Assembly: GCA_002691465.1 (NCBI GenBank)
Contig: NZHP01000028.1
Coordinates: forward strand, 5,263-69,262
From: Gammaproteobacteria bacterium
Lineage (GTDB): Bacteria; Pseudomonadota; Gammaproteobacteria; Steroidobacterales; UBA11654
Reading direction: 5' to 3'
DNA length: 64,000 nucleotides
This document shows positions 12,752 through 51,767 of this stretch, piece by piece. A program made the translations under genes and the position numbers. Each line of letters starts with the position of its first letter. The first letter of the stretch is position 1. Below the pieces are notes generated by a model that was not told the origin of the DNA, did not search any database, and saw only the letters and a list, made by a program, of their open reading frames with translations.

Positions 12752-13315
12752 ATGAAAAGAATAATTGTTGGAATATCTGGTGCAAGCGGAGTCATTTATG
12801 GCATTCGACTTCTTGAGATGCTAAAGGACATCGATGATGTGGAGTCTCATTTGGTGATGACCAATGGAGCTAAACTCAATATCACGCTAGAAAGCGATTT
12901 TGAGCCAAAAAGTGTTGAAGAACTTGCTGATGTGGTTCACAGCGATAAGAATTTAGGTGCCAGTATTGCCAGTGGATCTTACGAAACCGAAGGCATGATC
13001 ATTGCTCCATGTTCAATGAAAACACTTTCGGGTGTTGCCAATTCATATGCTGCAAATTTAATTGTTAGAGCTGCAGACGTGGTTTTGAAGGAAGGCAGAA
13101 GCTTGATTATTATTCCTAGAGAAACACCACTTCATTTAGGACACATTGACCTTCTGCGGAAAGTTTCATTAATGGGAGCCCATGTAGTACCGCCAAACCC
13201 AGCTTTTTATAATCATCCGGAATCAGTCGATGACATCGTCAATCACACTGTTGGCAGGGTGTTAGACTTAATTGGGGTAGACAATGAAGTGGTCAGTCGA
13301 TGGAAAGGTGTTTAA
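12752..13315 (+). CDS. ubiX: flavin prenyltransferase UbiX
   Basis: 187 aa. MKRIIVGISGASGVIYGIRLLE..., APCSMKTLSG, PRETPLH motifs. Confidence 0.9.
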   Translation: MKRIIVGISGASGVIYGIRLLEMLKDIDDVESHLVMTNGAKLNITLESDFEPKSVEELADVVHSDKNLGASIASGSYETEGMIIAPCSMKTLSGVANSYAANLIVRAADVVLKEGRSLIIIPRETPLHLGHIDLLRKVSLMGAHVVPPNPAFYNHPESVDDIVNHTVGRVLDLIGVDNEVVSRWKGV

Positions 13316-14619: not shown

Positions 14620-14739
14620 GACATCTCACTCAATATTGATTTTCTATTGTATCGGTTAAACTTTGCAAAATCTTTGATTTAATTTGCATACCTGAAAAGG
14701 CACAATAATCTAATGGATTATGATTAAAGGAGATAAAGA

Positions 14740-16236
14740 GTGCAATTTAATGATATGAGAGGATACATTGATGTCCTCAGAAAAGAGAACCTGCTTCATG
14801 ACTTAGACATTCAACTGAATGTAGCTAGAGAAACATCAGAGCTTCAAGCTTTGATGAGGCATTTGCATAATGATAACGGTCCCGCACTCATGTTAAATAA
14901 TCTTGAAGGTTATAACATGCCAGAAGTACCTCTTTTATTTAATCCCTATGGAACCCGAGAAAGAACAGCAATGATCTTAGGAGAGCGTGATCCACTCAAG
15001 GCAAAAGCAAAGCACGCAAATGTTTTGGCTGATCAATCCAGCTGGATTGAGCCCAATGTTATGAGCAAGGAAGATTCGCCTTGCAAACAGAATATAATCT
15101 CAGAAAAAAATATTGACCTTGCAAAGCAGCTTCCGCACGCATGGTTTGGTAAAGAGGGGCCATCCTATATAACGAATGCCATTGTAATCACCAAGGATCC
15201 AGAAACAGGCATTGCAAATACCGGTTGTTATCGATTGACACAATTATGGAATGCATCTCACCCTCACGGGGAGATCTATTCAGAAGAAGAGCAGAGGAGA
15301 TGTCTATCCATCTTTGCGTTTTGGAATCCTCCTGGGAATCACATTGGTCTCCACTGGGCGAAAGCGCAAGAGATGGGCAAGCCATTGGAAATTGCGATTG
15401 CCTGCGTTGTAGACCCTGTGATCCAACTGGCTGGTGCGACAAGTCTTCCCTTCGGATTGGACGAGATGAATTTTGCAGGCGGACTAAAGGGAGAAGCAAT
15501 TGATGTGGTTCCTTGCGAAACAATTGATATCGATGTTCCTGCAAGATCAGAATTGATTATAGAAGGTCAGTTTTTACCGAATCGGGATATTACCATAGGC
15601 CCTCATTCTAACCCCATTGGTTATTACGATGATGAGCAATTATTTCCTCTGATGGAGGTTCAATGCATCACCCATAGAGATGAACCTATATGGTATTCAA
15701 CAATGGAAATGATGCCCCCATTTGATCATAACTATATGGCTGTTTTGCCGATAGAGGGAGAATTACTCAGTGATCTTCAAAAAAAGATTCCAGAGGTCAA
15801 TGATGTAGTGGTAACTCCAAACTTGAGTTACTTTATTCAACTCTCAGTTGATGGAGCTCAGAAGCCACATCCAGAGTTTGGTAAATATGTTTTGCACGCA
15901 GTTTGGGGTGCAAGCGGAAGATGGGGAAGAACTGCAAAAATAGTAGTAGTAGTTGGACCGGATGTAAACCCTTATGATCTTAATGAGGTTGAATGGGCAA
16001 TATTAACTCGTGTGCAGCCACATTCAGACACCATCATTAATAAATCAGGACAAGCATTCCTAATGGATCCTTCGGCACCCAAAGATTCGAGTCATGGAAT
16101 TGCACTTCAGTCTGAACAGATGGGAATTGATGCAACAATAAAGGTTTACGAGCGTTTTCATTCATATCCTGAATACAGCAATGCTGACTCTGAATCTGTA
16201 TCCGCTATTGCAGAAAAACTAAAAGGATCATTCTAG
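14740..16236 (+). CDS. UbiD-family (prFMN-dependent decarboxylase-like) protein, atypical active-site segment
   Basis: 498 aa. GTG start 7 nt after aaggag. Collinear with UbiD throughout (NTGCYR, DEMNFAGGLKG, ITHRDEPIWYST), but the EGP[FY]G[ED] segment reads IGPHSN. Confidence 0.85.
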   Translation: MQFNDMRGYIDVLRKENLLHDLDIQLNVARETSELQALMRHLHNDNGPALMLNNLEGYNMPEVPLLFNPYGTRERTAMILGERDPLKAKAKHANVLADQSSWIEPNVMSKEDSPCKQNIISEKNIDLAKQLPHAWFGKEGPSYITNAIVITKDPETGIANTGCYRLTQLWNASHPHGEIYSEEEQRRCLSIFAFWNPPGNHIGLHWAKAQEMGKPLEIAIACVVDPVIQLAGATSLPFGLDEMNFAGGLKGEAIDVVPCETIDIDVPARSELIIEGQFLPNRDITIGPHSNPIGYYDDEQLFPLMEVQCITHRDEPIWYSTMEMMPPFDHNYMAVLPIEGELLSDLQKKIPEVNDVVVTPNLSYFIQLSVDGAQKPHPEFGKYVLHAVWGASGRWGRTAKIVVVVGPDVNPYDLNEVEWAILTRVQPHSDTIINKSGQAFLMDPSAPKDSSHGIALQSEQMGIDATIKVYERFHSYPEYSNADSESVSAIAEKLKGSF

Positions 16237-16253
16237 TTAGCTGATCTAAAAAG

Positions 16254-17873
16254 GTGACGGTGAGCAAGAAAACAAAGCAATTCAGAGATTTGTTGCTTAG
16301 CAATAACCTCGAATTCTTGCTCGAGGCACACAATGGAATCAGTGCCAAGATTGCTCAAGAGGCTGGCTTCAAGGGCCTTTGGGCAAGTGGATTGGCAATT
16401 TCTGCTCAATACGGAGTTAGAGATAGCAATGAGGCAAGCTGGACCCAAGTCCTCGAAAACATAGAGTTCATGTCTGATGCCAGCGATATACCGATCATGC
16501 TCGATGGCGATACTGGGTACGGTAATTTCAATAACGTGAGACGCTTGGTTAAAAAACTCGAACAGAGGAATATTGCGGCAGTTTGCATCGAAGACAAGCT
16601 TTATCCTAAAACGAATAGTTTCATTGATGGAAATAAGCAAGAGCTTGCAGGTATTGACGAATTTTGCAGTCGCATCAAGGCTGGAAAAGATGCACAGGCA
16701 GATGATGACTTCTCAATTGTCACCAGGATTGAGGCATTCATAGCTGGATGGGGTTTAGGCGAGGCTTTAAAAAGAGCTGAAGCCTATCACGAGGCAGGTT
16801 CTGATGGAATTTTAATCCACAGCGCAAGGTCTGACCCAAGTGAGATTTTGGCCTTTAAGAAAGAGTGGAGCGAGACCTCGCCGGTGATTGTGGTGCCAAC
16901 AAAATATTACTCAACACCGACTGAGGTATTTGAAGATGCAGGCTTTTCCATTGTCATCTGGGCAAATCATATGATCAGGTCATCCATTAGAGCCATGCAA
17001 GAATCTGCTAGAGAAATACATGATTCATCTTCAATTTTGACAATTGAAAATGAAATCGCTTCAGTGAAGGAAATTTTTAGGTTGCAAGGCGTCTCTGAGC
17101 TTATAGAAGCAGAGGAAAACTATTTACCAAGAAAGGAGAGCACAACAGAGGCAATTATTCTTGCTGCTTCGCGAGGTGAGGCAATGGGAAGTTTAACCAA
17201 TCATCAGCCCAAAGCTATGATATCACTTAAAAATAAAAGCATCTTAGAGCACATTACTGACACCTATCGAAGTCACGATGTTGAAAGAATTCATGTGGTT
17301 CGAGGATATAAAAAAGAAGCAATTAATTTTCCAGAACTGAGTTATTTCGATAATGACGATTATGAAAACACTTCCGAGTTATCCTCGTTTCAAAAAGCCA
17401 TTGATAATGTGGACAGCGATATTTATTGCTCATTCGGAGATGTATTATTCAAGCCTTACCTATTGCAGTTATTGGATGAATCGAAAGATGATCTGGCAAT
17501 CACAGTAGATACCCAATGGCAAGATTCTGTAAATAAAGACAGAGCCGCAGACTACGTTACTTGTTCTGAGCCGCACTCAAGAGAAAATTATGGCGACTCA
17601 ATCTTTTTAAAGTCAATAGGAGAAACACTGGATGCCGATTCCATTCATGGCGAATGGATGGGAATTGCAAAGATTTCTTCAAAAATTTTACCCATGATAA
17701 AAAAAGAGGTTGATGCTTTATCGAAGCATGAAGATTTTCATTCAATGAAGATGCATCATTTTTTTGAACACCTTTGCAGACTTAAGCAACCGATAAGAAT
17801 TATTTATAGCACAGGAAATTGGCTAGATATCGACTCGCTCGAGGATCTGATAAGAGCAAATAATTTCATATGA
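16254..17873 (+). CDS. aepX: phosphoenolpyruvate phosphomutase fused to a C-terminal nucleotidyltransferase-like domain
   Basis: 539 aa. PepM-specific [10 protein letters not shown] motif (nt 16587-16619). [26 protein letters not shown]-terminal ~240 aa has an NTP-transferase-like pattern ([15 protein letters not shown]...[14 protein letters not shown]). Confidence 0.9.
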
Positions 17874-19015
17874 TTTCAGCTGAAAGATTTTTAGATGAAG
17901 CTTTTAAATTGGGTTTTAGTACCTATACCGGAGTGCCTTGCTCGTTCTTAAAACCTCTGATCAATGCATCAATAGAGTCAGACAAATTATCATACATTCC
18001 GGCCGTCAATGAGGGCGATGCAGTTGGCATTGCTGCTGGAGTATATCTTGGCGGCGGCTTGCCCGTTGTAATGTTTCAGAATTCTGGATTAGGCAATGCT
18101 GTGAATCCATTTACTTCACTGATTCAAACTTTCGAAATTCCCATTTTAATGATTGCCACCCTGAGAGGTGATCCAAACAGTCATCCCGACGAACCACAAC
18201 ATCGACTCATGGGTAAAATCACAACTCAATTGCTCGATCTAATGGAAGTAAGTTGGTCTTGGTTTCCAGAAGATGAGGACGATATGAAAAAGACAATGGA
18301 GTTTATCAAAGACAGAATAATTGACTCTAAAAAACCACATGTTCTTGTGATGAAGAAAGGCTCAGTAGAGCCTTATGAGCTCAATGAGCAGCTTGAAAGT
18401 ACAATTGTGAACGGTCTAATCACCAATGATTATGAGAATGATGAATCAGAAATGGTGACAAGAATAGAGTTCATGGAAAAGATCATTGAAAAAACAAATC
18501 AGAATCACGATTTAATCATTGCCACAACGGGATATTCTGGAAGGGAACTATACGCAGCCTCAGATCGTAAAAATCATTTCTACATGGTCGGTTCAATGGG
18601 ATGCGCGATAGATATAGGATTGGGATTATCAATCCAAAGGCCTGACAAGAGAGTTATTGTCATAGATGGCGATGGCGCTATCCTTATGAGATTGGGAGCG
18701 ATGTCCACGGTGGGCTTCATGGCGCCCAAAAATCTCAATCACATTGTTCTTGATAATGGAGCATATGAATCAACCGGCTCTCAAAAAACAGTTTCTTCTC
18801 TAATTGATTTTAAAATGATTGCTCACTCGAATCGTTATAGAAACTCCATCAAGATGAATTCCTTGAAAGACTTTGATTCGTTGTTAGACTCAAATATGAA
18901 AGGACCAAACTTTATTCATTTTCCAATAAAGAAAGGGGTATCAAGTAAACTTCCTCGCCCTTCGATTACACCAAAAGAGGTTGCAATAAGATTCAGGGAA
19001 AATATCGAAAACTAA
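17870..19015 (+). CDS. aepY: phosphonopyruvate decarboxylase (TPP-dependent)
   Basis: 381 aa. ATGA overlap with pepM. N-terminus ...[21 protein letters not shown] motif [12 protein letters not shown]...[10 protein letters not shown]. Confidence 0.85.
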
Positions 19016-19016
19016 A

Positions 19017-20114
19017 ATGAGTAATATAAAGCAAAATACCTTATTGAATCCCGGCCCAGTCAATATGTCGGATCGAGTGAAAAATCGAATGATCAGAGAA
19101 GATTTTTGTCACCGTGAAAAAGAATTCTCAGCTTTAGTAAAAGACGTCAATTCCCAGATTGTTAAAATTTATGATGGCATGAAAAATTATGAATCTGTAA
19201 TCATCAGCAGCTCTGGAACAGGAGCCGTTGAGGGCATGTTGACTTCTTTTATTCACGACGAGAAGTCATTAATAATCAGCAACGGTGTTTATGGCGAAAG
19301 AATGGAAAGGATTTTAAGGGTTCAAAATAAGAAATTAGAAATGATTCAATTTGATTGGCTTGATCCGATTAATATTAAATCAATCAAAAACTGTCTTGAC
19401 TCCGATCAGAGCATAAAGAATCTAATTTTAGTCCATCATGAAACGACCACTGGAAGGTTGAATGAGTTGAAAGAAGTAGGGCAACTTTGCAAAGACTATG
19501 ATCTCGGTTTATATCTAGATGGAGTCAGTAGTTTTGGCGCAGAAGAAATAGCTGCAAATGAAATCAATTTGAAAGCCGTTTCTGCATCTGCGAATAAATG
19601 CCTTCACGGTGCGCCTGGTTTAGCATTTGTGGTGGCGCACAAGGATCAATGGGAGAGAGCGCCTGAAAAAACATCTGGCGTATACTTTGATTTACACCAG
19701 TACTATGCCATGCAAAAAACAGATGGTTTCTCGCCATTTACTCAAGCCACACATTTGGTTTCAGCTTTTAATGAGGCAATGCTTGAATTCAACGAGATGG
19801 GTGGATGGAAAGCGAGGAATAATTTATTTCGGAGTAGGGCAGAAGAAATCAATGCTTGCTTGGATCGACTTGGCATTGAAACACTGATACCAAAGGAAGA
19901 TTACTCATCTGTTCTGAGGTCTTACCAACTTCCTGAAGGCATTTCTTATGAGGATTTACATGCATTCATGAAAAAGAATGGTTTTGTAATTTATCAAGGG
20001 CAAGGAAGTTTCAAAAAGAACATATTTAGAATATCAACCATGGGTCATATCAAAGAATCAGACATAACTTTGTTGTGCAGTTTATTTGAAGAATTCTTCA
20101 AAAATCATGATTAA
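19017..20114 (+). CDS. aepZ: 2-aminoethylphosphonate:pyruvate aminotransferase (class V)
   Basis: 365 aa. LLNPGPVNMS N-terminus. PLP-Lys context SASANKCLHGAPG. Position directly after ppd. Confidence 0.85.
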   Translation: MSNIKQNTLLNPGPVNMSDRVKNRMIREDFCHREKEFSALVKDVNSQIVKIYDGMKNYESVIISSSGTGAVEGMLTSFIHDEKSLIISNGVYGERMERILRVQNKKLEMIQFDWLDPINIKSIKNCLDSDQSIKNLILVHHETTTGRLNELKEVGQLCKDYDLGLYLDGVSSFGAEEIAANEINLKAVSASANKCLHGAPGLAFVVAHKDQWERAPEKTSGVYFDLHQYYAMQKTDGFSPFTQATHLVSAFNEAMLEFNEMGGWKARNNLFRSRAEEINACLDRLGIETLIPKEDYSSVLRSYQLPEGISYEDLHAFMKKNGFVIYQGQGSFKKNIFRISTMGHIKESDITLLCSLFEEFFKNHD

Positions 20115-20856
20115 GCAGGCTGTCATATTGGCAGCAGGCATGGGAAGCCGATTAAGCAATCACAATGATCAAAAGCCAAAAGGATTTCTTCAACTTGGAA
20201 AAAAATCAATCATTGAAGAGTCAATCGATAAGCTCATCAAGAACGGAATCGAAAAAATATGGATTGTTACAGGTTATCAATCAGGACAATTTGAAGAATT
20301 AATCAAAAAATATAAATCAACGATTAGTCTTGTAAAAAATAAAGATTATACTCAATCGGGAACACTGCATTCGCTGTCGATGATTTCTGAAAAGGTTTCA
20401 CCTCCATTCCTGTTGCTTGAGTCAGACATCATTTTTGAATTCAGGGCGATTGAAATGATCATCGGTGATCTAAGAGATAATTGCATCTTGCTGAGTGGGT
20501 TCAGTGATTGTGGAGACGAAGTATTTGTCGAAACGTCAGCCTCCAAATTGGTTTCGATGTCAAAAAACATCAACGAGCTGAGCAGCACTCCAACTGGCGA
20601 GTTGGTTGGAATAACCAAAATAGGAAGCGAGTTATTTACAAAAATGATGCAATTTTATAAAAGGAATCCAATAAAAAAAATGGCTGATTATGAGACAGAT
20701 GCCTTGGTCGGTGTTGCCAAAGATATTCCGATACCCTGTTTGTTAATAGAAGATTTAATATGGTCAGAGATAGATGATGAGACTCATCTAAAACGCGCAA
20801 AGAAAGAAATTTATCCCATGGTTCTTAAAACTGATTTAGAATATCTCACTAAATAA
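20107..20856 (+). CDS. LicC/PntC-like nucleotidyl(cytidylyl)transferase
   Basis: ATG 20107 overlaps the aepZ stop by 8 nt. Canonical AVILAAGMGSRLS...KPKGFLQL signature. About 250 aa. Confidence 0.75.
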   Translation: MIKQAVILAAGMGSRLSNHNDQKPKGFLQLGKKSIIEESIDKLIKNGIEKIWIVTGYQSGQFEELIKKYKSTISLVKNKDYTQSGTLHSLSMISEKVSPPFLLLESDIIFEFRAIEMIIGDLRDNCILLSGFSDCGDEVFVETSASKLVSMSKNINELSSTPTGELVGITKIGSELFTKMMQFYKRNPIKKMADYETDALVGVAKDIPIPCLLIEDLIWSEIDDETHLKRAKKEIYPMVLKTDLEYLTK

Positions 20857-20880
20857 ATTGTCTAATAAAGGCATGTATCG

Positions 20881-21075
20881 GTGAAAAAAAGAGCAATAGT
20901 TTTCTCAATCATATTTATTTGCTATGCAAATGCAGCTCATGCATATCTAGATCCAAGTACAGGCGGCATGTTGATCTCAGCCATAGTCGGAATGTTTGCA
21001 ACACTCGGTCTTGTGATTAAATCATATTGGTACAAATTAAAGTCACTCTTCATAAAGAAAGAAAAAAAGAATTGA
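20881..21075 (+). CDS. small (64 aa) membrane protein, unknown function
   Basis: GTG start. Signal-like N-terminus, then YLDPSTGGMLISAIVGMFATLGLVI transmembrane segment and a Lys-rich tail. Lies inside the operon with 24-nt and 13-nt spacers. Confidence 0.4.
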   Translation: MKKRAIVFSIIFICYANAAHAYLDPSTGGMLISAIVGMFATLGLVIKSYWYKLKSLFIKKEKKN

Positions 21076-21088
21076 TCGATCCTCATAT

Positions 21089-22219
21089 ATGAAGACTTTC
21101 TTTAAGGAATTTCAAGGATACAGAGCATACAAGAAACTTCCCAAGTCATATAAGAAGGTCGTTTTCTACTCAGAAAGTTTTCAAGACTGGCACCACCTTA
21201 AACCTCCTTTGAATGCCTTATTGGATGAGGATATAGCCGTCACCTATGTCACTTCAGATGATAAAGATCCTGGCTTATTAAAACTGTCTAAAAAATACAG
21301 ATCCATTTATATTGGTAAAGGATTTTTTAGGATTCTATTTTTCCAGTTTCTAAGGGCCAAGTTATTGATATTGACGATGATGGATTTAAATAATTTTGAA
21401 TTAAAAAGATCCATGCATCCAGTTCACTATGTCTACATCTTTCACAGCCTAACAAGTACACATATGGTAGACACAGAAAAGTCATTTGATCACTACGACA
21501 CTATATTTTGTGCCGGTCCTCACCAAAAGAAAGAAATTGAGCTCAGAGAGAAAAATAAAGATTTAAAGGCAAAGAATCTCGTTCCTTATGGATATCCCAG
21601 GATAGAAAAACTGATTCAATTAAGCTCAAAACCAAAGAATGAAAAAAAAGTCATACTTTTGGCACCCACATGGGGTGAGCAAAGCATTATTAACCTTATG
21701 GGAATGGAGATTTGCTCAATAATCATTAATCAGGGTTATTCCTTGATACTTCGACCGCATCACGAAACAATCAAACGATCACCCCAGCTCATCGATGAAA
21801 TAGAAAATAAGTATTCTCATCTTGAAACCTTTAGATTGGTGAGGGAAATGGGAGACGCTGAATCGCTCCTGCAATCCGACTTATTAATTTGTGATTGGTC
21901 AGGTACAGCAATTGAATATGCATTTGGACTGGAAAAACCTGTCATATTTATAGACATACCGCCACGAGTTAGAAATCCAAATTGGAGAGAAATTCAATCA
22001 GAGCCATTAGAAATGAGTATCAGAGAAAAGGTTGGTCGAGTCATCTGTCCCTCAAAACTCGATGAGTTGCCCTCGTCTATTTCTCAATTATTGAATGAAG
22101 ATCAGATCTCCTCGAGTCTGATCAAATCACTGCGTGAAGAATTTATATATAATTTAAGTGATTCAGAAATTATTGGTAGAGAAGAGATAAAGAAATTACT
22201 AAAGACACTCAAAAACTAA
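21089..22219 (+). CDS. TagF-like CDP-glycerol glycerophosphotransferase-family protein
   Basis: 376 aa. Motifs ILLAPTWGE, LRPHHET, LLICDWSGTAIEYAFGLEKPVIFID parallel the TagB/TagF family (APTWR, HP, TDYSS...KPxIF). Confidence 0.6.
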   Translation: MKTFFKEFQGYRAYKKLPKSYKKVVFYSESFQDWHHLKPPLNALLDEDIAVTYVTSDDKDPGLLKLSKKYRSIYIGKGFFRILFFQFLRAKLLILTMMDLNNFELKRSMHPVHYVYIFHSLTSTHMVDTEKSFDHYDTIFCAGPHQKKEIELREKNKDLKAKNLVPYGYPRIEKLIQLSSKPKNEKKVILLAPTWGEQSIINLMGMEICSIIINQGYSLILRPHHETIKRSPQLIDEIENKYSHLETFRLVREMGDAESLLQSDLLICDWSGTAIEYAFGLEKPVIFIDIPPRVRNPNWREIQSEPLEMSIREKVGRVICPSKLDELPSSISQLLNEDQISSSLIKSLREEFIYNLSDSEIIGREEIKKLLKTLKN

Positions 22220-22296
22220 ATTTTCCATCTAAATGGTTCCTTTGGTATGGTTTTTTTAACGGAATCATTGCTTCGCTAATATCAATTCAGTACTTA

Positions 22297-23991
22297 TTGC
22301 TCTTTCCTTCAGACATGACTCTGCTGTCTTCAAGTTATGTCCTGTTTGCAACCTTGACCCACTTTATTTCCATGCATTTCTTGCCTTTATTCCTACTTTC
22401 ATTGATTCAACGGAGAGTCGGTTTTGGAAGAGTATGTGTCATCTCAGCAATTATTTATGCATCAATCATTAATACCTTGATCGTTATAGATGCAAATTTC
22501 TTTGCAACCAATCGATTTCATATGAGCCTAATGACCGTAATGCTTTTTGATGATGCAACTTATTTTTTTTCAGGTCTTCAATTCGTGATTATGATCATCT
22601 TTCAATATTATCTGGCCAGTGAAATCGGAAAGTCTATAAAGAAGAATTCAAAACAATCATATCTCGGTATTTCTTTGGCAGCGGTCACTATCAGCACATG
22701 GCTTTATGTTCAGGGCGTGCATATATGGGCAGACGCAACTTATCAATCATCCATCACAACCTTTACAAGATATTTACCATTGTTCAGACCCATTCATGCC
22801 AAACGAGATCTCGCTAGATTGGGATTGATCGACTCAGATCAACTGAGAGAGAAGAATCTATCTCAAGAAATTAAAAATACTGAATTGCTTTATCCCAAGA
22901 ATGCATTGCAGTGCCAAAGTGATGCACAATCAAACAATGTCCTTATTATACTGGTTGATGCACTACGTCCTGAGATGGTCAATGATTCAATGATGCCAAA
23001 TGCATCAAAGCTCTTTTCAGAAAGCATTAACTTTGAGAATCATTTTTCGGGTGGAACTTCTTCCAGAATGGGAATGTTTTCACTATTTTATGGTTTGCCT
23101 TCTACATATTGGAGAGTGTTTCACGATAATTTGAAACCCTCATTGTTGATTACGATGTTTGATGAGAGCAATTACGATGTTCAGGCCATCAGCTCATCAG
23201 GTCTGGGAAGTCCTGCTGTACTCGATAGGACAGCTTTTGCTGGTATGGCAAAGATCAATCTTAAGCCGCTCGGAGATTCTGAGTCAACGAGCCTGAAATT
23301 AGTAACAGACCGATGGGTTAAAGAAATCAATCAGTCGAAAGAATCAAAATTCTTTACTTTGCTTCACTATGATCCCCCAATTAATGAAGTAAACCCAACT
23401 GAATCCTTGGAAATTAACAACAAATTTATTAGGAATAATGATGTCTCTCACAATCTTGAGGTTTCAAGATATACTCAGTCCATTCGAGAGGTGGACAAAG
23501 AAATTGGAAGACTTATCAAGACTATAAAAGAAAGAGACTTGCTTAAAAATACCATTCTTATTTTGACTTCAGATCATGGGTATGAGCTCGATGATTATCA
23601 AGAGAATTACTATGGGCATTCCAGCAACTATAGTCCAGCCCAAACAAAGGTACCTCTAAGAATAATATGGCCAAGTAAAGACCCTAAAAAATACTCATTT
23701 CGATCCTCTCATCACGATATTGCTCCGACCTTGATGAAAGAAGTACTGGGTTGCTCAAACGATTATTCGGATTACAGCACTGGAAATAGTTTATTTGATC
23801 AAAAGCCATGGAGCTATTTGATTGCAGGAAGCTATGATTCATTCTCTATTTTGACCGACAAGAAGACCATCACGTCCTATGGGGCTTACTTTGAGGTCAG
23901 GGATGAAAATTACAATCTCACAAAAATCGAAGACTCTGATTATAAAGATCTAGAGGACGCGATATCCGATATGAGTGAGTATTATAAATAA
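22297..23991 (+). CDS. YejM/PbgA-like inner-membrane protein (DUF3413 N-domain + sulfatase/alkaline-phosphatase-fold domain); 5' end uncertain
   Basis: 564 aa from TTG 22297. Collinear with my recollection of E. coli YejM (DATYQSSITTFTRYLPLFRPIHAKR, NVLIILVDALRPE, SGGTSSRMGMFSLFYG). Contains ILTSDHGYE. A homologous first TM helix is encoded in frame upstream (22180-22296) without a canonical start. Confidence 0.8.
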   Translation: MLFPSDMTLLSSSYVLFATLTHFISMHFLPLFLLSLIQRRVGFGRVCVISAIIYASIINTLIVIDANFFATNRFHMSLMTVMLFDDATYFFSGLQFVIMIIFQYYLASEIGKSIKKNSKQSYLGISLAAVTISTWLYVQGVHIWADATYQSSITTFTRYLPLFRPIHAKRDLARLGLIDSDQLREKNLSQEIKNTELLYPKNALQCQSDAQSNNVLIILVDALRPEMVNDSMMPNASKLFSESINFENHFSGGTSSRMGMFSLFYGLPSTYWRVFHDNLKPSLLITMFDESNYDVQAISSSGLGSPAVLDRTAFAGMAKINLKPLGDSESTSLKLVTDRWVKEINQSKESKFFTLLHYDPPINEVNPTESLEINNKFIRNNDVSHNLEVSRYTQSIREVDKEIGRLIKTIKERDLLKNTILILTSDHGYELDDYQENYYGHSSNYSPAQTKVPLRIIWPSKDPKKYSFRSSHHDIAPTLMKEVLGCSNDYSDYSTGNSLFDQKPWSYLIAGSYDSFSILTDKKTITSYGAYFEVRDENYNLTKIEDSDYKDLEDAISDMSEYYK

Positions 23992-25436
23992 TGCTGATGC
24001 TAACCAGAATCTCGTTAGTAGTTTTTATATTCTCACAACAAGTCTTGTCTCTTGAGCAGCCGCTTGATCAGAATCATTTTGGTCAGATTACATTTGATTC
24101 TGAAAAGCCATCGATTGAAAGCTGGATCAGCTGTTTTCCAGATTGTTTCTCAGAAGGAAATGATTCGATTGAACTCAATAATGACTCAAGGACTTTTTTA
24201 AAGATTTTGAACAGTATGAGTGAATCTCCTAGTAGTTATCTGATGACATCAAAAAGAGCAGGCGATGATTTTGAAATCATTTACAATGCCACTCGAAATT
24301 CAAATGAAATCTCACAAATCACTTTCAAGAAAAGTGAAGAGAGTGATTTTTTGGAAGTCATTGTTCGATCACATAATCAAATAGCATTAGAAATTGACTT
24401 AGAAAAGCTTTTAAGCGAAGAAGACATATATGGACTGGGCGGTATTTATAATGGCACCTGGTTGGTAAGAGTCGATGATCAAGGCACCGAGAATCTTACA
24501 AGTTTAAGTGAAATAAAAATAGATTCTGGTTCATGGGTTGGTGCCCGAACAAGATTTTGGTCATTCCTCATTTCATCTCCAAATCAAAAGTTATCAATCA
24601 ATGAAATCAACACTTCAAGCTCAAAATTGGTTATTTCTTCGATGTCATTAGATGGATTCCATAAATTTAAATTATATTTTGGACCTTTGAATACCAAACA
24701 GTTGACTCAATTAGACTCAAAGCTAAGTGATCTTATGTACTCAGCACTTTGGGATTGGCTGAGACAATTATGCTTTTTTATTGAATGGATTTTTGTTTGG
24801 CTTTTAAGCATGACTGGAAATCCAGGTTTCTCGATCCTTTTTCTCGCGTGCATGCTCAAAGTCATCATTTTCCCTCTGAATCAAATAGCTGAAAGATTGC
24901 AGGATGATGTCAATGAGATTCAGTCATCGTTGCAACCCAAGATCAATGAAATCAAGAAAGTTTTTTCGGGCGAAGAGGCCAATCAAAAAATCATGAAACT
25001 TTACAAAGATAAAAATATAAGTCCCTTTTATTCAATGAAGAGTTTATTTGGTTTTCTGATACAGATTCCAATTTTCATAGCAGTCTTTGATGTCTTAGGA
25101 GAATCAATCTATTTAATGAATGAGCCTTTTTTATTTATTGATGATTTGAGTAAACCGGATAGATGGGTTTTACTGCCAATTTTTATCCCATTTTTTGGAC
25201 CTTCATTTAACCTTCTGCCATTGTGCATGATGATCATAAGCATGCTCAGTGCATTCCTGTATTATGATCGAAACTTGTCCAGTGATTTATTGAATAACCA
25301 AAAAAGAAATTTGTACTTCATGTCTCTATTGTTTTTTGTTTTGTTGTTCACTTTTCCATCCGGGATGGTGCTTTACTGGACAGCTTCAAATATTCTGCAA
25401 GTACTGCAGATGCAAATAAAAAAGGCCCTTCAGTAA
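23991..25436 (+). CDS. YidC/Oxa1-family membrane insertase homolog (divergent, short periplasmic domain)
   Basis: 481 aa. TAATG overlap with the upstream gene. MKLYKDKNISPF, LIQIPIFIAVF, PFLFIDDLSKPD, PSGMVLYWTASNILQ parallel the E. coli YidC core. Confidence 0.8.
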   Translation: MLMLTRISLVVFIFSQQVLSLEQPLDQNHFGQITFDSEKPSIESWISCFPDCFSEGNDSIELNNDSRTFLKILNSMSESPSSYLMTSKRAGDDFEIIYNATRNSNEISQITFKKSEESDFLEVIVRSHNQIALEIDLEKLLSEEDIYGLGGIYNGTWLVRVDDQGTENLTSLSEIKIDSGSWVGARTRFWSFLISSPNQKLSINEINTSSSKLVISSMSLDGFHKFKLYFGPLNTKQLTQLDSKLSDLMYSALWDWLRQLCFFIEWIFVWLLSMTGNPGFSILFLACMLKVIIFPLNQIAERLQDDVNEIQSSLQPKINEIKKVFSGEEANQKIMKLYKDKNISPFYSMKSLFGFLIQIPIFIAVFDVLGESIYLMNEPFLFIDDLSKPDRWVLLPIFIPFFGPSFNLLPLCMMIISMLSAFLYYDRNLSSDLLNNQKRNLYFMSLLFFVLLFTFPSGMVLYWTASNILQVLQMQIKKALQ

Positions 25437-25449
25437 AGGGCCTTTTTTT
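25418..25449. terminator. bidirectional rho-independent terminator
   Basis: AAAAAAGGCCCTT cagta AAGGGCCTTTTTT: perfect GC-cored stem (up to 13 bp), 5-nt loop containing the yidC-like stop codon, A-tract and T-tract on either side. Sits between convergent genes. Confidence 0.8.
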
Positions 25450-25464
25450 ACATCCAAGAGGTCT

Positions 25465-26079
25465 TTACATCAAGAATCCGTGACCAGCGCCCACCATGCT
25501 CATCAGCATTGGTATAGACAGCATTGTATTGGTTCTTGAAGCAAGGAAGGCAGTTCTCGCTGCTTTTGCTTTTTCTTCAGCGGTTGCTTCCACGATTCCT
25601 AGAACTTTTTTCTGATTTGGCCATATTAAAACCCAAACATTGAATAGCATTATGGTACCCATCCATGCGCCAATACCTATTGTAGTGGCATACGGATTTC
25701 CAGTTCTCATGCCCAGCTCAAAAGCGTCACCAAGAACGCCATTAAGATATAAATAAGTTGCACCAGTTATCCAAGTTACGAGTGCCGCCCATCTAAACCA
25801 TAGAAGCGCCCTAGGCGCAACATATTTAGTAATTGCTGCGGGACCCGGGCCGTCTTCATCGGCATTTGCCTGTGCAATCGATGGTACTTGAACAAAATTA
25901 AAGTAATAAAGAAGCCCTATCCATGCGACACCTGCACCCACATGCAACCAAATTACTATTCCCTTTAAGCCGGTTCCCATTGCAAACGGTTGAGCGGCCA
26001 TCGAGTTTACGACAGCGATAACGATTGCTATTGCCAACCCAGCTACAATAGTGCCTGTAATCTTGTCTAATGGATTCAT
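25465..26079 (-). CDS. polytopic membrane protein (resembles the membrane domain of PuuD-type proteins)
   Basis: 204 aa from the second ATG (SD agggg is 7 nt upstream; the first ATG at 26085 is only 1 nt from the SD). Motif WLHVGAGVAWIGLLYYFNFVQ. Function uncertain. Confidence 0.6.
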   Translation of the reverse strand: MNPLDKITGTIVAGLAIAIVIAVVNSMAAQPFAMGTGLKGIVIWLHVGAGVAWIGLLYYFNFVQVPSIAQANADEDGPGPAAITKYVAPRALLWFRWAALVTWITGATYLYLNGVLGDAFELGMRTGNPYATTIGIGAWMGTIMLFNVWVLIWPNQKKVLGIVEATAEEKAKAARTAFLASRTNTMLSIPMLMSMVGAGHGFLM

Positions 26080-26212
26080 AATCATACCCCTGATAATTTT
26101 TACGAATAAAAGTATAACAATTTTTATTCAACTCAAACAAATCAGTCAAAAAAATATTCAATATTTTTACAACATAAGAATCTATAATATAACCATAAAT
26201 TAGGAGTGATCG

Positions 26213-26571: not shown

Positions 26572-27861
26572 TTGGTTCCAGATCTTGGTGATTTCAATGA
26601 CGTAGAAGTCGTGGAGATGCATGTAGATTCAGGGGATAGCCTCAACATAGATGATCCAATTTTAACTCTTGAGACCGAAAAAGCAGCGATGGATATTCCG
26701 AGCCCTTCTACAGGCAAGGTCATTGAAGTTTATGTTCAAAATGGAGATAAAATTAATCAGGGGGATGACTTATGTTTGATCGAGCTCGAGGAATCTAAAA
26801 AATCTGAAGCAAAAGAGAAAGAGATCACAAAAGCAGATACTGAGGAAGAGCCAATAGAAATAAAAAAATCTCCTCAAGTCTCTCAGGTTCAGAACCCAGA
26901 TGCTCAAGGTCAAAAAAGTGATCGGCAATTTTTCAATACTTCATTCAATTCTGTTCATGCCAGTCCTTCAGTCAGAAAATTATCTCGTGAGCTGGGTGTA
27001 GACTTAAATCAAGTCAATGGATCTGGAATGAAAGGACGTATTCTTCCAGACGATCTCAAATCTTTTGTCAAAGGAGTTATGAGTGGGCAAAATGCTCCTG
27101 CTCAATCTGCGCTTCCGGAGTTACCTATAGTTGATCATTCTGCATTTGGCGAAATTGAGAGCGTACCCTTGAGCCGAATAAAAAAGATTTCAGGACCTCG
27201 ACTTCAAGCCAGTTGGATCAATATTCCTCATGTTACCCAACATGATGAAGCTGATATAAATCAGCTGGAACAACAGCGTTTAGATTTAAAAAAATCGTAT
27301 AAATCTGAAGGCATATCTTTGTCTATTCTTCCATTCATTATTTTGGCTGTTTGTAAGTTATTAAAGGAAATGCCTGATTTTAATTCATCTTTGGATCAAG
27401 AGAATTCATCACTTATCCATAAAAAATACATAAACATAGGATTTGCGGCAAACACCGACCAAGGGCTAATGGTTCCTGTAATTAAAGATGCAGATCAGAA
27501 AAATTTAAAAGAAATATCGCAAGAGCTTGTCAAGTTGAGCGAAGATGCCAGAAGTGGAAAGATTAAATTAGAAGATCTTCAAGGCGGGACTTTCACGATA
27601 TCAAGTTTAGGTGGCTTTGGAGGGGTGGGATTTACACCGATAATTAATCCTCCCGAAGTTGCTATACTCGGTGTCGCTCGCGCCCAAATAAGACCAATCA
27701 TGATCAAAGGAAAATTCTTGCCTAGACTCATTCTCCCGCTTTCACTTTCTTATGACCATCGAGTGATTGATGGCGTTGGCGGCATTCAATTTACAACAGC
27801 CTTAAAGGGATTGCTTGAGAGTCCCGAGTTATTTCTGCCAGAAGAGGTGAAGAATGGCTGA
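26572..27861 (+). CDS. aceF: dihydrolipoyllysine-residue acetyltransferase (2-oxoacid dehydrogenase E2, single lipoyl domain)
   Basis: Lipoyl site LETEKAAMDIPS, E3-binding domain ASPSVRKLSRELGVDL, catalytic SLSYDHRVIDG. Start ambiguous (TTG 26572, or ATC 26551 behind a strong SD). Confidence 0.85.
   Translation: MVPDLGDFNDVEVVEMHVDSGDSLNIDDPILTLETEKAAMDIPSPSTGKVIEVYVQNGDKINQGDDLCLIELEESKKSEAKEKEITKADTEEEPIEIKKSPQVSQVQNPDAQGQKSDRQFFNTSFNSVHASPSVRKLSRELGVDLNQVNGSGMKGRILPDDLKSFVKGVMSGQNAPAQSALPELPIVDHSAFGEIESVPLSRIKKISGPRLQASWINIPHVTQHDEADINQLEQQRLDLKKSYKSEGISLSILPFIILAVCKLLKEMPDFNSSLDQENSSLIHKKYINIGFAANTDQGLMVPVIKDADQKNLKEISQELVKLSEDARSGKIKLEDLQGGTFTISSLGGFGGVGFTPIINPPEVAILGVARAQIRPIMIKGKFLPRLILPLSLSYDHRVIDGVGGIQFTTALKGLLESPELFLPEEVKNG
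26578..26694 (+). repeat. lipoyl-domain coding segment, copy 1 (paralogous to 27872-27988)
   Basis: By-eye DNA alignment: ccagatcttggtgatttcaatgacgtagaagtcgtggagatgcatgta...ttaactcttgagaccgaaaaagcagcgatggat versus copy 2. Confidence 0.6.
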
Positions 27862-29587
27862 GATAAGAATTCCCGATCTTGGTGATTTTGACGAAGTTGA
27901 AGTGGTGGAGGTGCATGTAAAAGAAGGCGATAGTGTCAAGGAAGGAGATCCAATATTAACCCTTGAGACCGAAAAGGCCGCGATGGATGTTCAAAGTAAC
28001 GTTTCCGGCGTCGTAGAGAAAGTTTCTGTGAGCCTCGGGGAAAAAGTTTCGAATGGTGATTTAGTGAGCACTGTATTAGCTGAATCAGACACTGATAAAA
28101 AGCATGAACCCATCGAAAAGGAAGAAGAGCCAAATCGTAAAAATGAATCCACCAATCCAGTAAAAAAATCAACAGATTCAAATTATGATTACAATCTCAT
28201 TGTGATCGGTGCTGGACCAGGCGGTTATGCCGCAGCATTCAGAGCATCCGATTTAGGTCTAAAAGTCGCTTTAGTCGATAAGAATTCAGATTTAGGCGGG
28301 GTTTGCCTTAATGTAGGATGCATTCCTTCCAAAGCTTTTCTTCATGCGGCGAAGATTTTAGATGACTCAAAAGATGCAGCGGTTAGTGGAATAAAATTCA
28401 ATGAACCAGAAATCGATCTATCCAAAATGAAGGGGTGGAAAAACAAAATCATTGGAGGATTAACCAATGGACTGGAAAGTTTAGCAAAACAAAGAAATGT
28501 CGATGTGATTCAAGGCAATGCAACATTCTCATCAAGGAATGAGATTGCAATTAACCATCAAGGCGAATCACAGACGTTTTCATCCGAGCAATTCATCATT
28601 GCTGTCGGGTCTGAGCCAGCTGTGCTCAATTTTATGCCTGATGATCCTAGGATTATAGATTCGACCGGAGCATTGGAGCCGAGTGAAATTCCATCAAATA
28701 TCTTAATCATCGGGGGAGGAATCATTGGCCTTGAAATGGCAACCATATACTCTGCCCTAGGCAGCGAAGTGACAATCGTTGAACTAACCAAGGATTTAAT
28801 GCCTGGAACGGATCGAGATCTTGTGAGACCACTAGAAAAAGTTCTGAAAAAGAAGTGCGATAAGATCATGAAATCAACCCAAGTGGTTTCTGCCAAAGCC
28901 ACAGATGATGGCATCAATATATCCTTCAAGCAGGACGAAGAAGAATTCAGCGAGGTATTTCAGAATGTCCTTGTTGCAGTTGGAAGGAAATCAAACGGCC
29001 ATCTTCTTGGTCTGAATGAGATAGGCGTGAATATCGATGATCAAGGCATCATCAAGGTCGATCAACAATTCAAAACCAATGTCGAATCAATACATGCCAT
29101 TGGCGATGTGATAGGCGAGCCCATGTTGGCACATAAAGCTAGCTATGAAGGCAAAGTTGCTGCTGAGGTAACAGCAGGACAAAGAGTCAGCAATGATGCC
29201 AGATGCATCCCTTCTGTTGCCTATACTGATCCAGAGGTTGCTTGGGTAGGGCTTTCAGAAGATGAATGCAAAGCCAAAGGGATGAATTATGGAAAAGGTG
29301 TCTTTCCCTGGTCAGCCAGCGGAAGGTCACTAACAATCGGAAGAAACGAAGGCATGACCAAGTTGCTTTTTAATAATTCAACCAAAAAAGTCATTGGGGG
29401 AGGGATCGTTGGACCGAATGCTGGTGACTTGATTTCAGAAATTGCTTTGGCTATTGAGATGGATTGCGACGTGAATGACGTTGCATTGACTGTTCATCCA
29501 CATCCCACGCTATCCGAAACAGTCGCCATGGCAGCAGAAGTTTTTGAGGGAACCATCACGGATTTATACCTTAAACCCAGCAAATGA
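27854..29587 (+). CDS. lpdA: dihydrolipoyl dehydrogenase (E3) with N-terminal lipoyl domain
   Basis: 577 aa. N-terminal lipoyl domain (LETEKAAMDVQS), FAD loop GAGPGGY, redox disulfide GGVCLNVGCIPSK, C-terminal HPHPTLSE. Confidence 0.9.
   Translation: MAEIRIPDLGDFDEVEVVEVHVKEGDSVKEGDPILTLETEKAAMDVQSNVSGVVEKVSVSLGEKVSNGDLVSTVLAESDTDKKHEPIEKEEEPNRKNESTNPVKKSTDSNYDYNLIVIGAGPGGYAAAFRASDLGLKVALVDKNSDLGGVCLNVGCIPSKAFLHAAKILDDSKDAAVSGIKFNEPEIDLSKMKGWKNKIIGGLTNGLESLAKQRNVDVIQGNATFSSRNEIAINHQGESQTFSSEQFIIAVGSEPAVLNFMPDDPRIIDSTGALEPSEIPSNILIIGGGIIGLEMATIYSALGSEVTIVELTKDLMPGTDRDLVRPLEKVLKKKCDKIMKSTQVVSAKATDDGINISFKQDEEEFSEVFQNVLVAVGRKSNGHLLGLNEIGVNIDDQGIIKVDQQFKTNVESIHAIGDVIGEPMLAHKASYEGKVAAEVTAGQRVSNDARCIPSVAYTDPEVAWVGLSEDECKAKGMNYGKGVFPWSASGRSLTIGRNEGMTKLLFNNSTKKVIGGGIVGPNAGDLISEIALAIEMDCDVNDVALTVHPHPTLSETVAMAAEVFEGTITDLYLKPSK
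27872..27988 (+). repeat. lipoyl-domain coding segment, copy 2 (paralogous to 26578-26694)
   Basis: cccgatcttggtgattttgacgaagttgaagtggtggaggtgcatgta...ttaacccttgagaccgaaaaggccgcgatggat. Same length (117 nt), and most positions are identical to copy 1. Confidence 0.6.
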
Positions 29588-51691: not shown

Positions 51692-51767
51692 GGGCCGTTA
51701 GCTCAGTTGGTAGAGCAGCTGGCTTTTAACCAGTTGGTCGAAGGTTCGAATCCTTCACGGCCCACCA
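51692..51767 (+). tRNA. tRNA-Lys (anticodon UUU), CCA encoded
   Basis: GGGCCGT/ACGGCCC acceptor stem, AGCTCAGTTGGTAGAGC D-arm, anticodon loop CTTTTAA, GGTTCGAATCC T-arm, 3' ACCA. Confidence 0.95.

Follow-up and report, generated by a model that had tools for sequence, protein, structure and literature searches.

A candidate cassette for attaching 2-aminoethylphosphonate-type head groups to the cell envelope in a marine gammaproteobacterium

The stretch of 64,000 nucleotides (nt) analysed here, positions 5,263 to 69,262 of contig NZHP01000028.1 and hereafter the window, comes from a very abundant uncultured marine gammaproteobacterium. Between positions 16254 and 25449 it carries eight genes on the + strand, in which enzymes for the synthesis and activation of 2-aminoethylphosphonate (AEP) are followed by a four-gene cassette encoding a small membrane peptide, a TagF-like enzyme, a YejM-like protein and a YidC-like protein. 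It is proposed, with a probability of about 0.62, that this is a phosphonyl-tailoring locus in which the cassette places aminoalkyl-phosph(on)ate head groups, activated by a cytidylyl group, on the envelope, with AEP as the head group in this lineage.

A large part of the dissolved organic phosphorus of the sea is phosphonate, and phosphonates feed the aerobic production of methane. The biosynthetic half of the locus is that of the Pnt pathway, including the common fusion of PepM to a nucleotidyltransferase and a second PntC (PMC6697681, PMC8942020). The published clusters of this pathway pair PntC with LicD-like proteins, glycosyltransferases or cytidine diphosphate (CDP)-alcohol phosphatidyltransferases, whereas the window locus is without those and has a TagF-fold enzyme and three membrane proteins. 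The step after cytidine monophosphate-AEP (CMP-AEP) has been called “enigmatic” (Rice et al. 2019, PMC6697681). The known part of the system is thus the Pnt pathway and the new part is a different, much more elaborate transfer module, which makes the four-gene cassette a concrete candidate for the missing step that attaches AEP to the surface after CMP-AEP. As the cassette is widespread in marine, sediment and soil bacteria, in dozens of lineages, any culturable carrier could be used for tests.

The eight open reading frames (ORFs) described in an earlier reading of the letters alone (the sequence-only reading) are all present on the + strand, and the hairpin said to end the series was found as well:

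16254-17873, + strand: fusion of the phosphoenolpyruvate (PEP) mutase PepM to a nucleotidyltransferase (NT), 539 amino acids (aa), with PEP mutase in residues 1-295 and a MobA/LicC-type NT domain in residues ~296-539
17870-19015, + strand: phosphonopyruvate decarboxylase Ppd, TIGR03297 405.7 bits (cutoff 312.5)
19017-20114, + strand: 2-aminoethylphosphonate aminotransferase (AEPT) of class V, by TIGR03301 and PF00266
20107-20856, + strand: PntC-type AEP cytidylyltransferase, open from TTG 20086, with the probable start at ATG 20107 (MIKQAVILAAG)
20881-21075, + strand: 64-aa procoat-like membrane peptide without a family match, with a signal-peptide-like N-terminus, an A-x-A/YLDPxTGxM motif, one transmembrane (TM) helix and a basic cytoplasmic tail
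21089-22219, + strand: TagF-fold (GT-B) CDP-alcohol-type phosphotransferase, PF04464 Glyphos_transf 42.5 bits (cutoff 22.1) over profile positions 98-291 of 367
22195-23991, + strand (canonical-start ORF from 22297): YejM/PbgA paralogue with a 5-TM DUF3413 domain (PF11893, 85.3 bits) and a periplasmic domain of the alkaline phosphatase (AP) superfamily (PF00884, 104.9 bits)
23991-25436, + strand: divergent YidC/Oxa1-family paralogue with an N-terminal signal-anchor, a periplasmic domain of ~250 aa and a canonical 5-TM insertase core
25418-25449, both directions: bidirectional intrinsic-terminator hairpin with an A-tract, a 13-bp stem and a T-tract, overlapping the YidC-like stop codon and lying between convergent genes

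Profile searches recovered every family that had been suggested for these proteins (PEP mutase, Glyphos_transf, DUF3413 with Sulfatase, 60KD_IMP). The junctions also agree with the sequence-only reading for the most part: a 4-nt overlap, a 1-nt gap, an 8-nt overlap (from ATG 20107), a 24-nt gap, a 13-nt gap and, at the last junction, a 1-nt overlap. The exception is the 77-nt gap placed before the YejM-like gene, which is probably no gap.

The chemistry of PepM, Ppd, AEPT and PntC is established elsewhere, and the enzymes of the window are assigned to it by family. PepM scores 386.9 bits against TIGR02320 (cutoff 319.6) and 195 bits against PF13714, and the signature motif that had been reported for it, of the EDKxxxxxNS type, lies at residue 113. 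What had been overlooked is its fusion to a second NT domain, which is matched by NTP_transf_3 (PF12804) at residues 300-410 and is distantly similar to PntC/LicC (E ~1e-4). As PepM is a fusion protein, two NT domains are encoded in the locus; such fusions are common among Ppm enzymes (PMC6697681). The thiamine pyrophosphate motif of Ppd was located as GDG-x26-N at residue 267, as expected from the earlier description. For the aminotransferase, TIGR03301 is the best-scoring family by far, at 346.7 bits and just under its cutoff of 360.8. The stand-alone NT had been called LicC-like; it is indeed a nucleotidyltransferase, but PntC is the better match, since it aligns full-length to the Tde1415 PntC of T. 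denticola from residue 1 of the structure (PDB 6pd1, E 4.5e-51), as against 2.6e-13 for LicC (1jyk). Public gene calls start this protein at the same ATG 20107, and by family it is clearly a PntC, that is, an AEP cytidylyltransferase. No LicD (PF04991) or CDP-OH_P_transf (PF01066) domain was found by Pfam in the nine ORFs scanned, from a UbiD gene to the YidC-like gene (14740-25436), which agrees with the earlier inference of a route other than the usual LicD or CDP-alcohol one.

The functional coupling of these genes to the cassette is best judged from other lineages. A first search with the TagF-like protein returned only sequences of 97-100% identity from the same abundant population, which are uninformative for neighbourhoods; about 2000 near-identical copies occur in ocean metagenomes, including Tara. 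In five species-level relatives, one GORG single-cell genome and four metagenome-assembled genomes, the locus is complete and its flanks are kept, while identity of the TagF-like protein falls from 97% to 51%. This conservation shows purifying selection on all eight genes; as these relatives are fully syntenic, flanks included, they say nothing on functional coupling. In a library of representatives at 50% identity, the same query matched 2246 entries with E <= 1e-3, of which 665 reach E <= 1e-30; most of the 150 listed are full-length and share about 29-48% identity. A second search used a profile of 42 distant members, and the first contexts, selected by sequence length alone, show the following orders:

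L011: PntC, PepM-NT, Ppd, PEMT/ICMT-type methyltransferase, AEPT, 81-aa peptide, TagF-like, DUF3413-sulfatase, YidC-like, then lipopolysaccharide (LPS)-core genes
L010: PepM-NT, Ppd, AEPT, peptide, TagF-like, YidC-like, PhyH, with the YejM-like gene divergent upstream
L013: peptide, TagF-like, YejM-like, YidC-like, HAD, lipase, sugar-type nucleotidyltransferase, with no pepM within 10 kb
L012 and L009: peptide, TagF-like and YejM-like only
L014 and L015: more distant TagF-like genes without the cassette

A profile scan of metagenomes gave 80 loci from sediment, soil and sea water, annotated by tblastn with the proteins of four loci and falling into 39 lineages at 80% TagF identity. The small peptide lies upstream of the TagF-like gene in 30 of the 32 lineages with enough flank. 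Among the 24 lineages with at least 4 kb of flank, a YejM-like gene follows the TagF-like gene in 21, a YidC-like gene in 19 and both in 18. Of the 20 dereplicated lineages whose upstream flank reaches 6 kb or more, 10 have PepM with Ppd and AEPT directly upstream of the cassette, and at least five gene orders occur. This 50% is a rough figure and no population frequency, since the loci sampled were the 80 that best matched a single family representative. Sampling by the peptide added two further pepM-linked contexts, L096/L097 and L098/L099, and in the latter the AEP genes and the cassette stand 7 kb apart with unrelated genes between them. Since pepM occurs in roughly 5% of bacterial genomes (PMC8942020), linkage in half of the lineages, with varied orders and flanks, is far above chance adjacency. 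The neighbourhood comparison that the sequence-only reading had proposed as a check thus came out in favour of linkage. Its view of the last four genes as the transfer and delivery half of the AEP pathway gains support from this recurrence, but the cassette also occurs without pepM and is therefore not specific to phosphonates.

The loci without pepM indicate what else the cassette may handle, and they imply that phosphonate is not its sole substrate. In a large soil group (21 loci, L048 and L094 among them), the genes directly upstream of the cassette encode a divergent nucleotidyltransferase and a dioxygenase of the PhyH family. The best NCBIfam match of the PhyH genes (L094 8894-9694; L010 12623-13396) is the phosphonate hydroxylase PhnY*, at 155-172 bits and below the cutoff of 500, and genes of this PhnY*-like type are also found inside many pepM-linked cassette loci. 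They suggest head groups of the 1-hydroxy-AEP type, also in soil loci without a nearby pepM, and loci of the L094 type probably handle phosphonate made or imported elsewhere. In L050, L058, L068 and L069 a nucleotidyltransferase directly follows the YidC-like gene. In L069, the one examined for fusion, a LicC/PntC-type NT is fused (14632-16449) to a homologue of CobD-like Ser/Thr-phosphate decarboxylases (PDB 6oux, 3fkd, 1lc5), which would yield a donor of the CDP-ethanolamine or CDP-aminopropanol type. The two kinds of loci, with PhnY*-like and NT genes or with an NT-decarboxylase, indicate that the cassette follows cytidylyl-activated aminoalkyl-phosph(on)ate donors generally, of which AEP is the phosphonate member. 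The same machinery is predicted to install phosphoethanolamine-like groups from CDP-activated donors, independently of the phosphatidylethanolamine-dependent EptA enzymes.

In TagF-type enzymes, an acceptor hydroxyl attacks a cytidine-linked phosphate and CMP leaves, as in TagF with CDP-glycerol. The TagF-like protein of the window has no TM segment. As a single-sequence query it has no sequence-level PDB match, whereas its family profile matches TarL (8va1, 5e-6) and Cps3D (1e-4). Its AlphaFold (AF2) model has a predicted local distance difference test score of 95 (59-sequence alignment), and Foldseek places TagF (3l7j, E 3.5e-12) and Cps3D (8qoy) at ranks 1-3 (E 3.5e-12 to 7.8e-12), ahead of generic GT-B enzymes. 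The family profile aligns the motifs GYxRxD, APSW, RPHP and SDWSG to TarL/Cps3D, and H119, S123, D137, E149, R222, H224 and E308 are invariant in the family. R222 and H224, both within RPHP, align to the HP motif of TarL and to Hh of Cps3D, which makes H224 the His of the (K/R)xHP motif; this conserved His contacts the donor pyrophosphate in TagF-like enzymes. The invariant residues H119, H125 and H145 are candidates for the equivalent of the catalytic base, H444 in TagF and H300 in TarL. The protein is proposed to be a CMP-AEP:acceptor AEP-phosphonotransferase.

The peptide is the most conserved part of the cassette. It was present as described, with one TM helix, and its alignment across loci holds A5, Y6, L7, D8, P9, T11, G12, M14, S17, A18, A24, W34 and Y35 invariant, in a motif that reads YLDPxTGxM..SA..G..A...L..K..WY after A-x-A. 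A profile of the peptide has 3019 matches, and the 120 listed are all of 61-84 aa and without a Pfam domain. Its layout of signal peptide, short acidic loop, TM helix and basic tail resembles that of M13 procoat, the classic YidC substrate; Pf3 coat is another substrate of YidC.

The YidC-like protein scores 110.5 bits against PF02096 (60KD_IMP, cutoff 35) and 115.3 bits against TIGR03592 (cutoff 84.3). It aligns to residues 307-530 of E. coli YidC and keeps all conserved insertase motifs, with K290 at the position of R366; a Lys stands there in 29 of 40 cassette homologues. Unlike the YidC insertase proper, it fails all YidC equivalog models (the best reaches 107.3 bits where 365 are required), and the periplasmic part is shorter and has diverged. 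Its gene shares an operon with that of an enzyme, to which the YidC-like core is fused in one family representative. The Pfam scan gave no PF14849 match in the window protein.

That fusion, of the YidC-like core to the TagF-like domain in frame (P0253), has a counterpart in two family representatives in which the peptide is fused in frame to the TagF-like domain (P0124 and P0203). In either type of fusion the TagF-like domain comes to lie in the cytoplasm, and both argue that the peptide, the YidC-like protein and the TagF-like enzyme form one membrane complex. Other fusions of the TagF-like family are to an ABC ATPase domain (P0175) and to a formyltransferase domain (P0133). A further observation concerns names: many TagF-like proteins of 380-400 aa are called “YidC/Oxa1 family membrane protein insertase” by JGI, and many peptides of 61-84 aa “O-antigen/teichoic acid export membrane protein”. 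Such names were probably carried over from genes that are fused to these or lie beside them, and automated surveys would be misled by them.

The YejM-like protein had been described as a YejM/DUF3413 protein of sulfatase fold. Both domains are present, and E. coli YejM (5i5h) aligns full-length with the TM and linker regions included (E 7.5e-46), but it is no YejM orthologue: against the YejM model NF038282 it reaches 209.6 bits where the cutoff is 825, and its catalytic motif is SDHG as against AGRG in E. coli YejM. In 50 cassette homologues D255, R258, S285, S/T290, D460-H461-G462, H475, S505-H506 and D508 are invariant. Among these are the nucleophile (S/T290) and the metal-binding Asp and His residues (D255, D460-H461, H475, H506) of the AP superfamily, conserved in 50/50. 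Scores against the LtaS and EptA models of NCBIfam are 15-20 bits, with cutoffs of 500-1250 (E 1e-3 to 1e-4). Because its nucleophile and metal ligands are invariant as in EptA, LtaS and related transferases, the protein is read as a putative enzyme of the periplasmic face rather than a LapC-type regulator.

It is from these parts that a mechanism can be assembled. PepM, Ppd and the class V aminotransferase would make AEP, and the stand-alone PntC would turn it into CMP-AEP in the cytoplasm. The peptide and the YidC-like protein would hold the soluble TagF-like enzyme at the inner face of the cytoplasmic membrane, an anchoring suggested by the natural fusion of each to the TagF-like domain. 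The enzyme would then use CMP-AEP to place the AEP-phosphonyl group on a hydroxyl of a membrane-bound acceptor, with release of CMP. As AEP has no hydroxyl, this transfer would be a single capping event and not a polymerisation as in TagF/TarL. The product would next reach the periplasmic face, where the YejM-like protein, with its 5-TM lipid-binding domain and AP-fold domain, would hand the head group on to the envelope component that finally carries it, most probably LPS (lipid A or inner core). The YidC-like protein and the peptide would act as integral membrane partners, as an anchor or assembly factor and possibly as a route for the intermediate across the membrane.

We infer both the acceptor and the role of the YidC-like protein. 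LPS is favoured as the target from three weak hints. The first is the homology to PbgA, which binds lipid A, over the TM and linker regions as well. The second is the presence of LPS-core genes (GT9, a kinase of 3-deoxy-D-manno-octulosonic acid (Kdo)) in the flanks of L011, L096 and L097. The third is a membrane methyltransferase of the PEMT/ICMT family encoded between ppd and the aminotransferase gene in L011 (8027-8626), in loci of the L016-L045 type, in L096 and in L097. The NCBIfam model closest to this methyltransferase is that of LmtA, the lipid A 1-phosphate O-methyltransferase, at 49.6 bits and far below the cutoff, and the gene is absent from the window. A more specific version of the proposal is that the YidC/Oxa1-fold protein and the procoat-like peptide are permanent subunits together with the TagF-fold enzyme and carry a membrane-bound, cytidylyl-derived head-group intermediate (AEP in this lineage, phosphoethanolamine-like groups in others) across the cytoplasmic membrane, after which an active PbgA/YejM paralogue attaches it to lipid A/LPS. 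This version is tentative and rather doubtful; were its transport step true, it would be a new kind of envelope-modification system.

Several observations weigh against head-group installation by the cassette as outlined. About half of the cassettes are without pepM within 10 kb, and L012, L009 and L013 show no obvious donor gene adjoining the cassette. The cytidine-linked donor of the TagF-like enzyme, and with it the release of CMP, is deduced from the fold and the neighbouring cytidylyltransferase genes only. There are no LPS genes near the locus in the window itself. Finally, L096/L097, although pepM-linked, seem to be without a YejM-like gene in the operon, so the YejM-like step may be optional.

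This last point is shared by an explanation in which the TagF-like enzyme alone decorates the final acceptor on the cytoplasmic side, such as Kdo2-lipid A/core or an undecaprenyl-linked glycan before export, with the YejM-like and YidC-like proteins confined to non-catalytic roles in regulation or biogenesis. LapC/YejM regulates LpxC and YidC inserts membrane proteins; E. coli YejM is a regulator and no proven enzyme, and the insertase motifs of the YidC-like core are complete. TagF-family enzymes, to which the fold match assigns the protein, normally use lipid-linked acceptors at the cytoplasmic face. The explanation is nonetheless unlikely, since a full catalytic set that is invariant in all 50 YejM-like proteins and partly lost in E. 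coli YejM argues for catalysis, and a pure biogenesis factor would not be expected fused to an enzyme, as in P0253, or kept in 19 of 24 lineages.

A phosphonolipid has also to be considered as the end product. In that case the TagF-like enzyme would make a lipid of the AEP-diacylglycerol type, a phosphono-analogue of phosphatidylethanolamine, which the remaining cassette proteins would distribute or remodel instead of decorating LPS or glycan. Peripheral GT-B enzymes with a diacylglycerol acceptor are well known, CMP-AEP is isosteric with CDP-ethanolamine, and the NT-decarboxylase version of the locus would make CDP-ethanolamine. The methyltransferase between ppd and the aminotransferase gene in many pepM versions fits such a product, but the window has none, and if a lipid were the end product, the periplasmic transferase-type domain and its conserved nucleophile would be left without an explanation. 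Clusters for phosphonolipids that contain sulfatase genes are on record (PMC8942020). A phosphonolipid would equally fit head-group transfer to the envelope if it were the intermediate donor, and as the end product it is distinctly unlikely.

A very improbable role for the peptide is that of acceptor or carrier: its invariant Thr/Ser/Tyr loop would receive the phosphonyl group, the YidC paralogue would insert the peptide as YidC does M13 procoat, and the YejM-like enzyme would then process it. The procoat-like layout is that of the classic YidC-only substrates, the YLDPxTG loop is strictly invariant and a dedicated YidC paralogue lies in the same operon; against this, the peptide is a permanent N-terminal anchor in the P0124 and P0203 fusions, its conserved loop (periplasm) and the TagF-like domain (cytoplasm) lie on opposite sides of the membrane, and a carrier used once would be costly. 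A consumable peptide shuttled by YidC was likewise considered and is weakened by the in-frame fusions of peptide and TagF-like domain. That the adjacency is coincidental, with the four downstream genes an independent envelope module, is scarcely credible: several genomes have the cassette without pepM and the synteny of the whole region in the clade of the window makes linkage there uninformative, but pepM, ppd and AEPT, from a pathway found in so few genomes, immediately precede the cassette in 10 of the 20 independent lineages, where orders and flanks vary, and the genes of the window overlap or lie at most 24 nt apart with a single terminator at the end.

Head-group installation by the cassette can be set beside several known systems. 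With TagF/TarL, Cps3D, Cps1B and Bcs3 the TagF-like enzyme shares the GT-B fold, the motifs and, it is expected, the type of chemistry; it differs in its 13-18% identity, in its occurrence in diderm bacteria and in its proposed anchoring via a separate peptide or YidC-like partner. The YejM-like protein has the architecture of YejM/PbgA/LapC, with the 5-TM DUF3413 domain, linker and periplasmic AP-fold domain, but it retains the SDHG catalytic site and sits in a head-group operon, not as an LpxC/LapB regulator. EptA/MCR, LtaS and OpgB take a head group from a lipid and attach it to an acceptor of the envelope at the outer face of the cytoplasmic membrane. They resemble the YejM-like protein in the periplasmic AP-fold domain, the Ser/Thr nucleophile, the metal ligands and a multi-TM anchor, and AEP is the phosphonate analogue of phosphoethanolamine. 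The TM domain in the window is DUF3413 and not EptA_B_N, and a dedicated cytoplasmic activation and transfer is encoded alongside, in contrast to the bulk phospholipid donors of those enzymes.

The logic proposed, namely cytoplasmic loading on a carrier, membrane crossing and a periplasmic transferase, is that of the Arn (ArnC/ArnEF/ArnT) and Gtr (GtrB/GtrA/GtrC) systems. There is no homology to any of their components, and the candidate for the middle step here is a YidC-family protein with a small peptide, for which we know of no precedent. No published link of pepM or phosphonates to TagF-type enzymes, DUF3413/YejM or YidC was found in the searched literature, with subscription journals outside its coverage, which agrees with the suggestion of an undescribed route but does not prove it. 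For envelope biology more widely, the locus provides a YejM/PbgA paralogue that has kept its catalytic site and a YidC paralogue that is operon-linked, and sometimes fused, to an enzyme.

The start of the YejM-like gene explains the revised junction before it. The reading frame is open and conserved at the protein level back to 22183, and KWFLWYGFFNGIIASL matches the N-terminus of YejM. In this frame, open from 22183, there is no ATG, GTG or TTG upstream of 22297. Public gene calls begin the protein at the internal ATG (539 aa), dropping about 60 residues. An ATT at 22195 is kept in the window and in L001, L002, L003 and L005, while the most distant relative, L004, has a normal ATG there. The simplest reading is that the true start is probably this non-canonical ATT, with a 25-nt overlap with the 3′ end of the TagF-like gene. 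A programmed −1 frameshift joining the TagF-like and YejM-like proteins was rejected, as the TagF stop is earlier in L005, there is no conserved slippery site and L004 has its normal ATG.

The hairpin at 25418-25449 was verified by folding and by a custom scan for T-tailed hairpins on both strands, in which it is the strongest of the window. RNAfold gives it −17.4 kcal/mol (z = −4.4), and 0 of 200 shuffles fold as well. A pattern-based terminator scan does not report it because the T-tract pairs with the A-tract. The hairpin can terminate both convergent genes, the second of which encodes a 206-aa membrane protein of the Urate_ox_N family (25465-26085, − strand) that shares this terminator with the YidC-like gene. 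A Urate_ox_N homologue is also found a few kb downstream of the cassette in L098 (18946-19554, − strand).

On the upstream side the nearest gene is the following:

14740-16236, + strand: UbiD-family decarboxylase, TIGR00148 272.9 bits, 17 nt upstream of pepM

Given this short distance on the same strand, the transcription unit may begin upstream of 16254, with the locus co-transcribed with a housekeeping gene. A UbiX-type flavoprotein gene lies further upstream, at 12752-13315. UbiD was rejected as a member of the pathway, as UbiX is nearby and UbiD is missing from every cassette or pepM locus examined outside the clade of the window; it is probably context that may share the transcript. Downstream of the locus are genes for pyruvate dehydrogenase (PDH) E2/E3, a major facilitator superfamily (MFS) transporter, Nth and methionyl-tRNA synthetase (MetRS), and with UbiD/UbiX on the other side the locus sits among housekeeping genes in this lineage.

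Neither a riboswitch nor a leader turned up near the operon when the window was scanned with Rfam and for tRNAs, and rRNA was likewise absent; the sole Rfam or ARAGORN match in the 64 kb is a tRNA-Lys (UUU) at 51692-51767. At 26572-29587, the adjacent PDH E2-like (429 aa) and E3-like (577 aa) genes share a lipoyl-domain region, with tblastn cross-hits 36-61% identical, from which it follows that the dihydrolipoamide dehydrogenase (577 aa) has its own N-terminal biotin/lipoyl domain.

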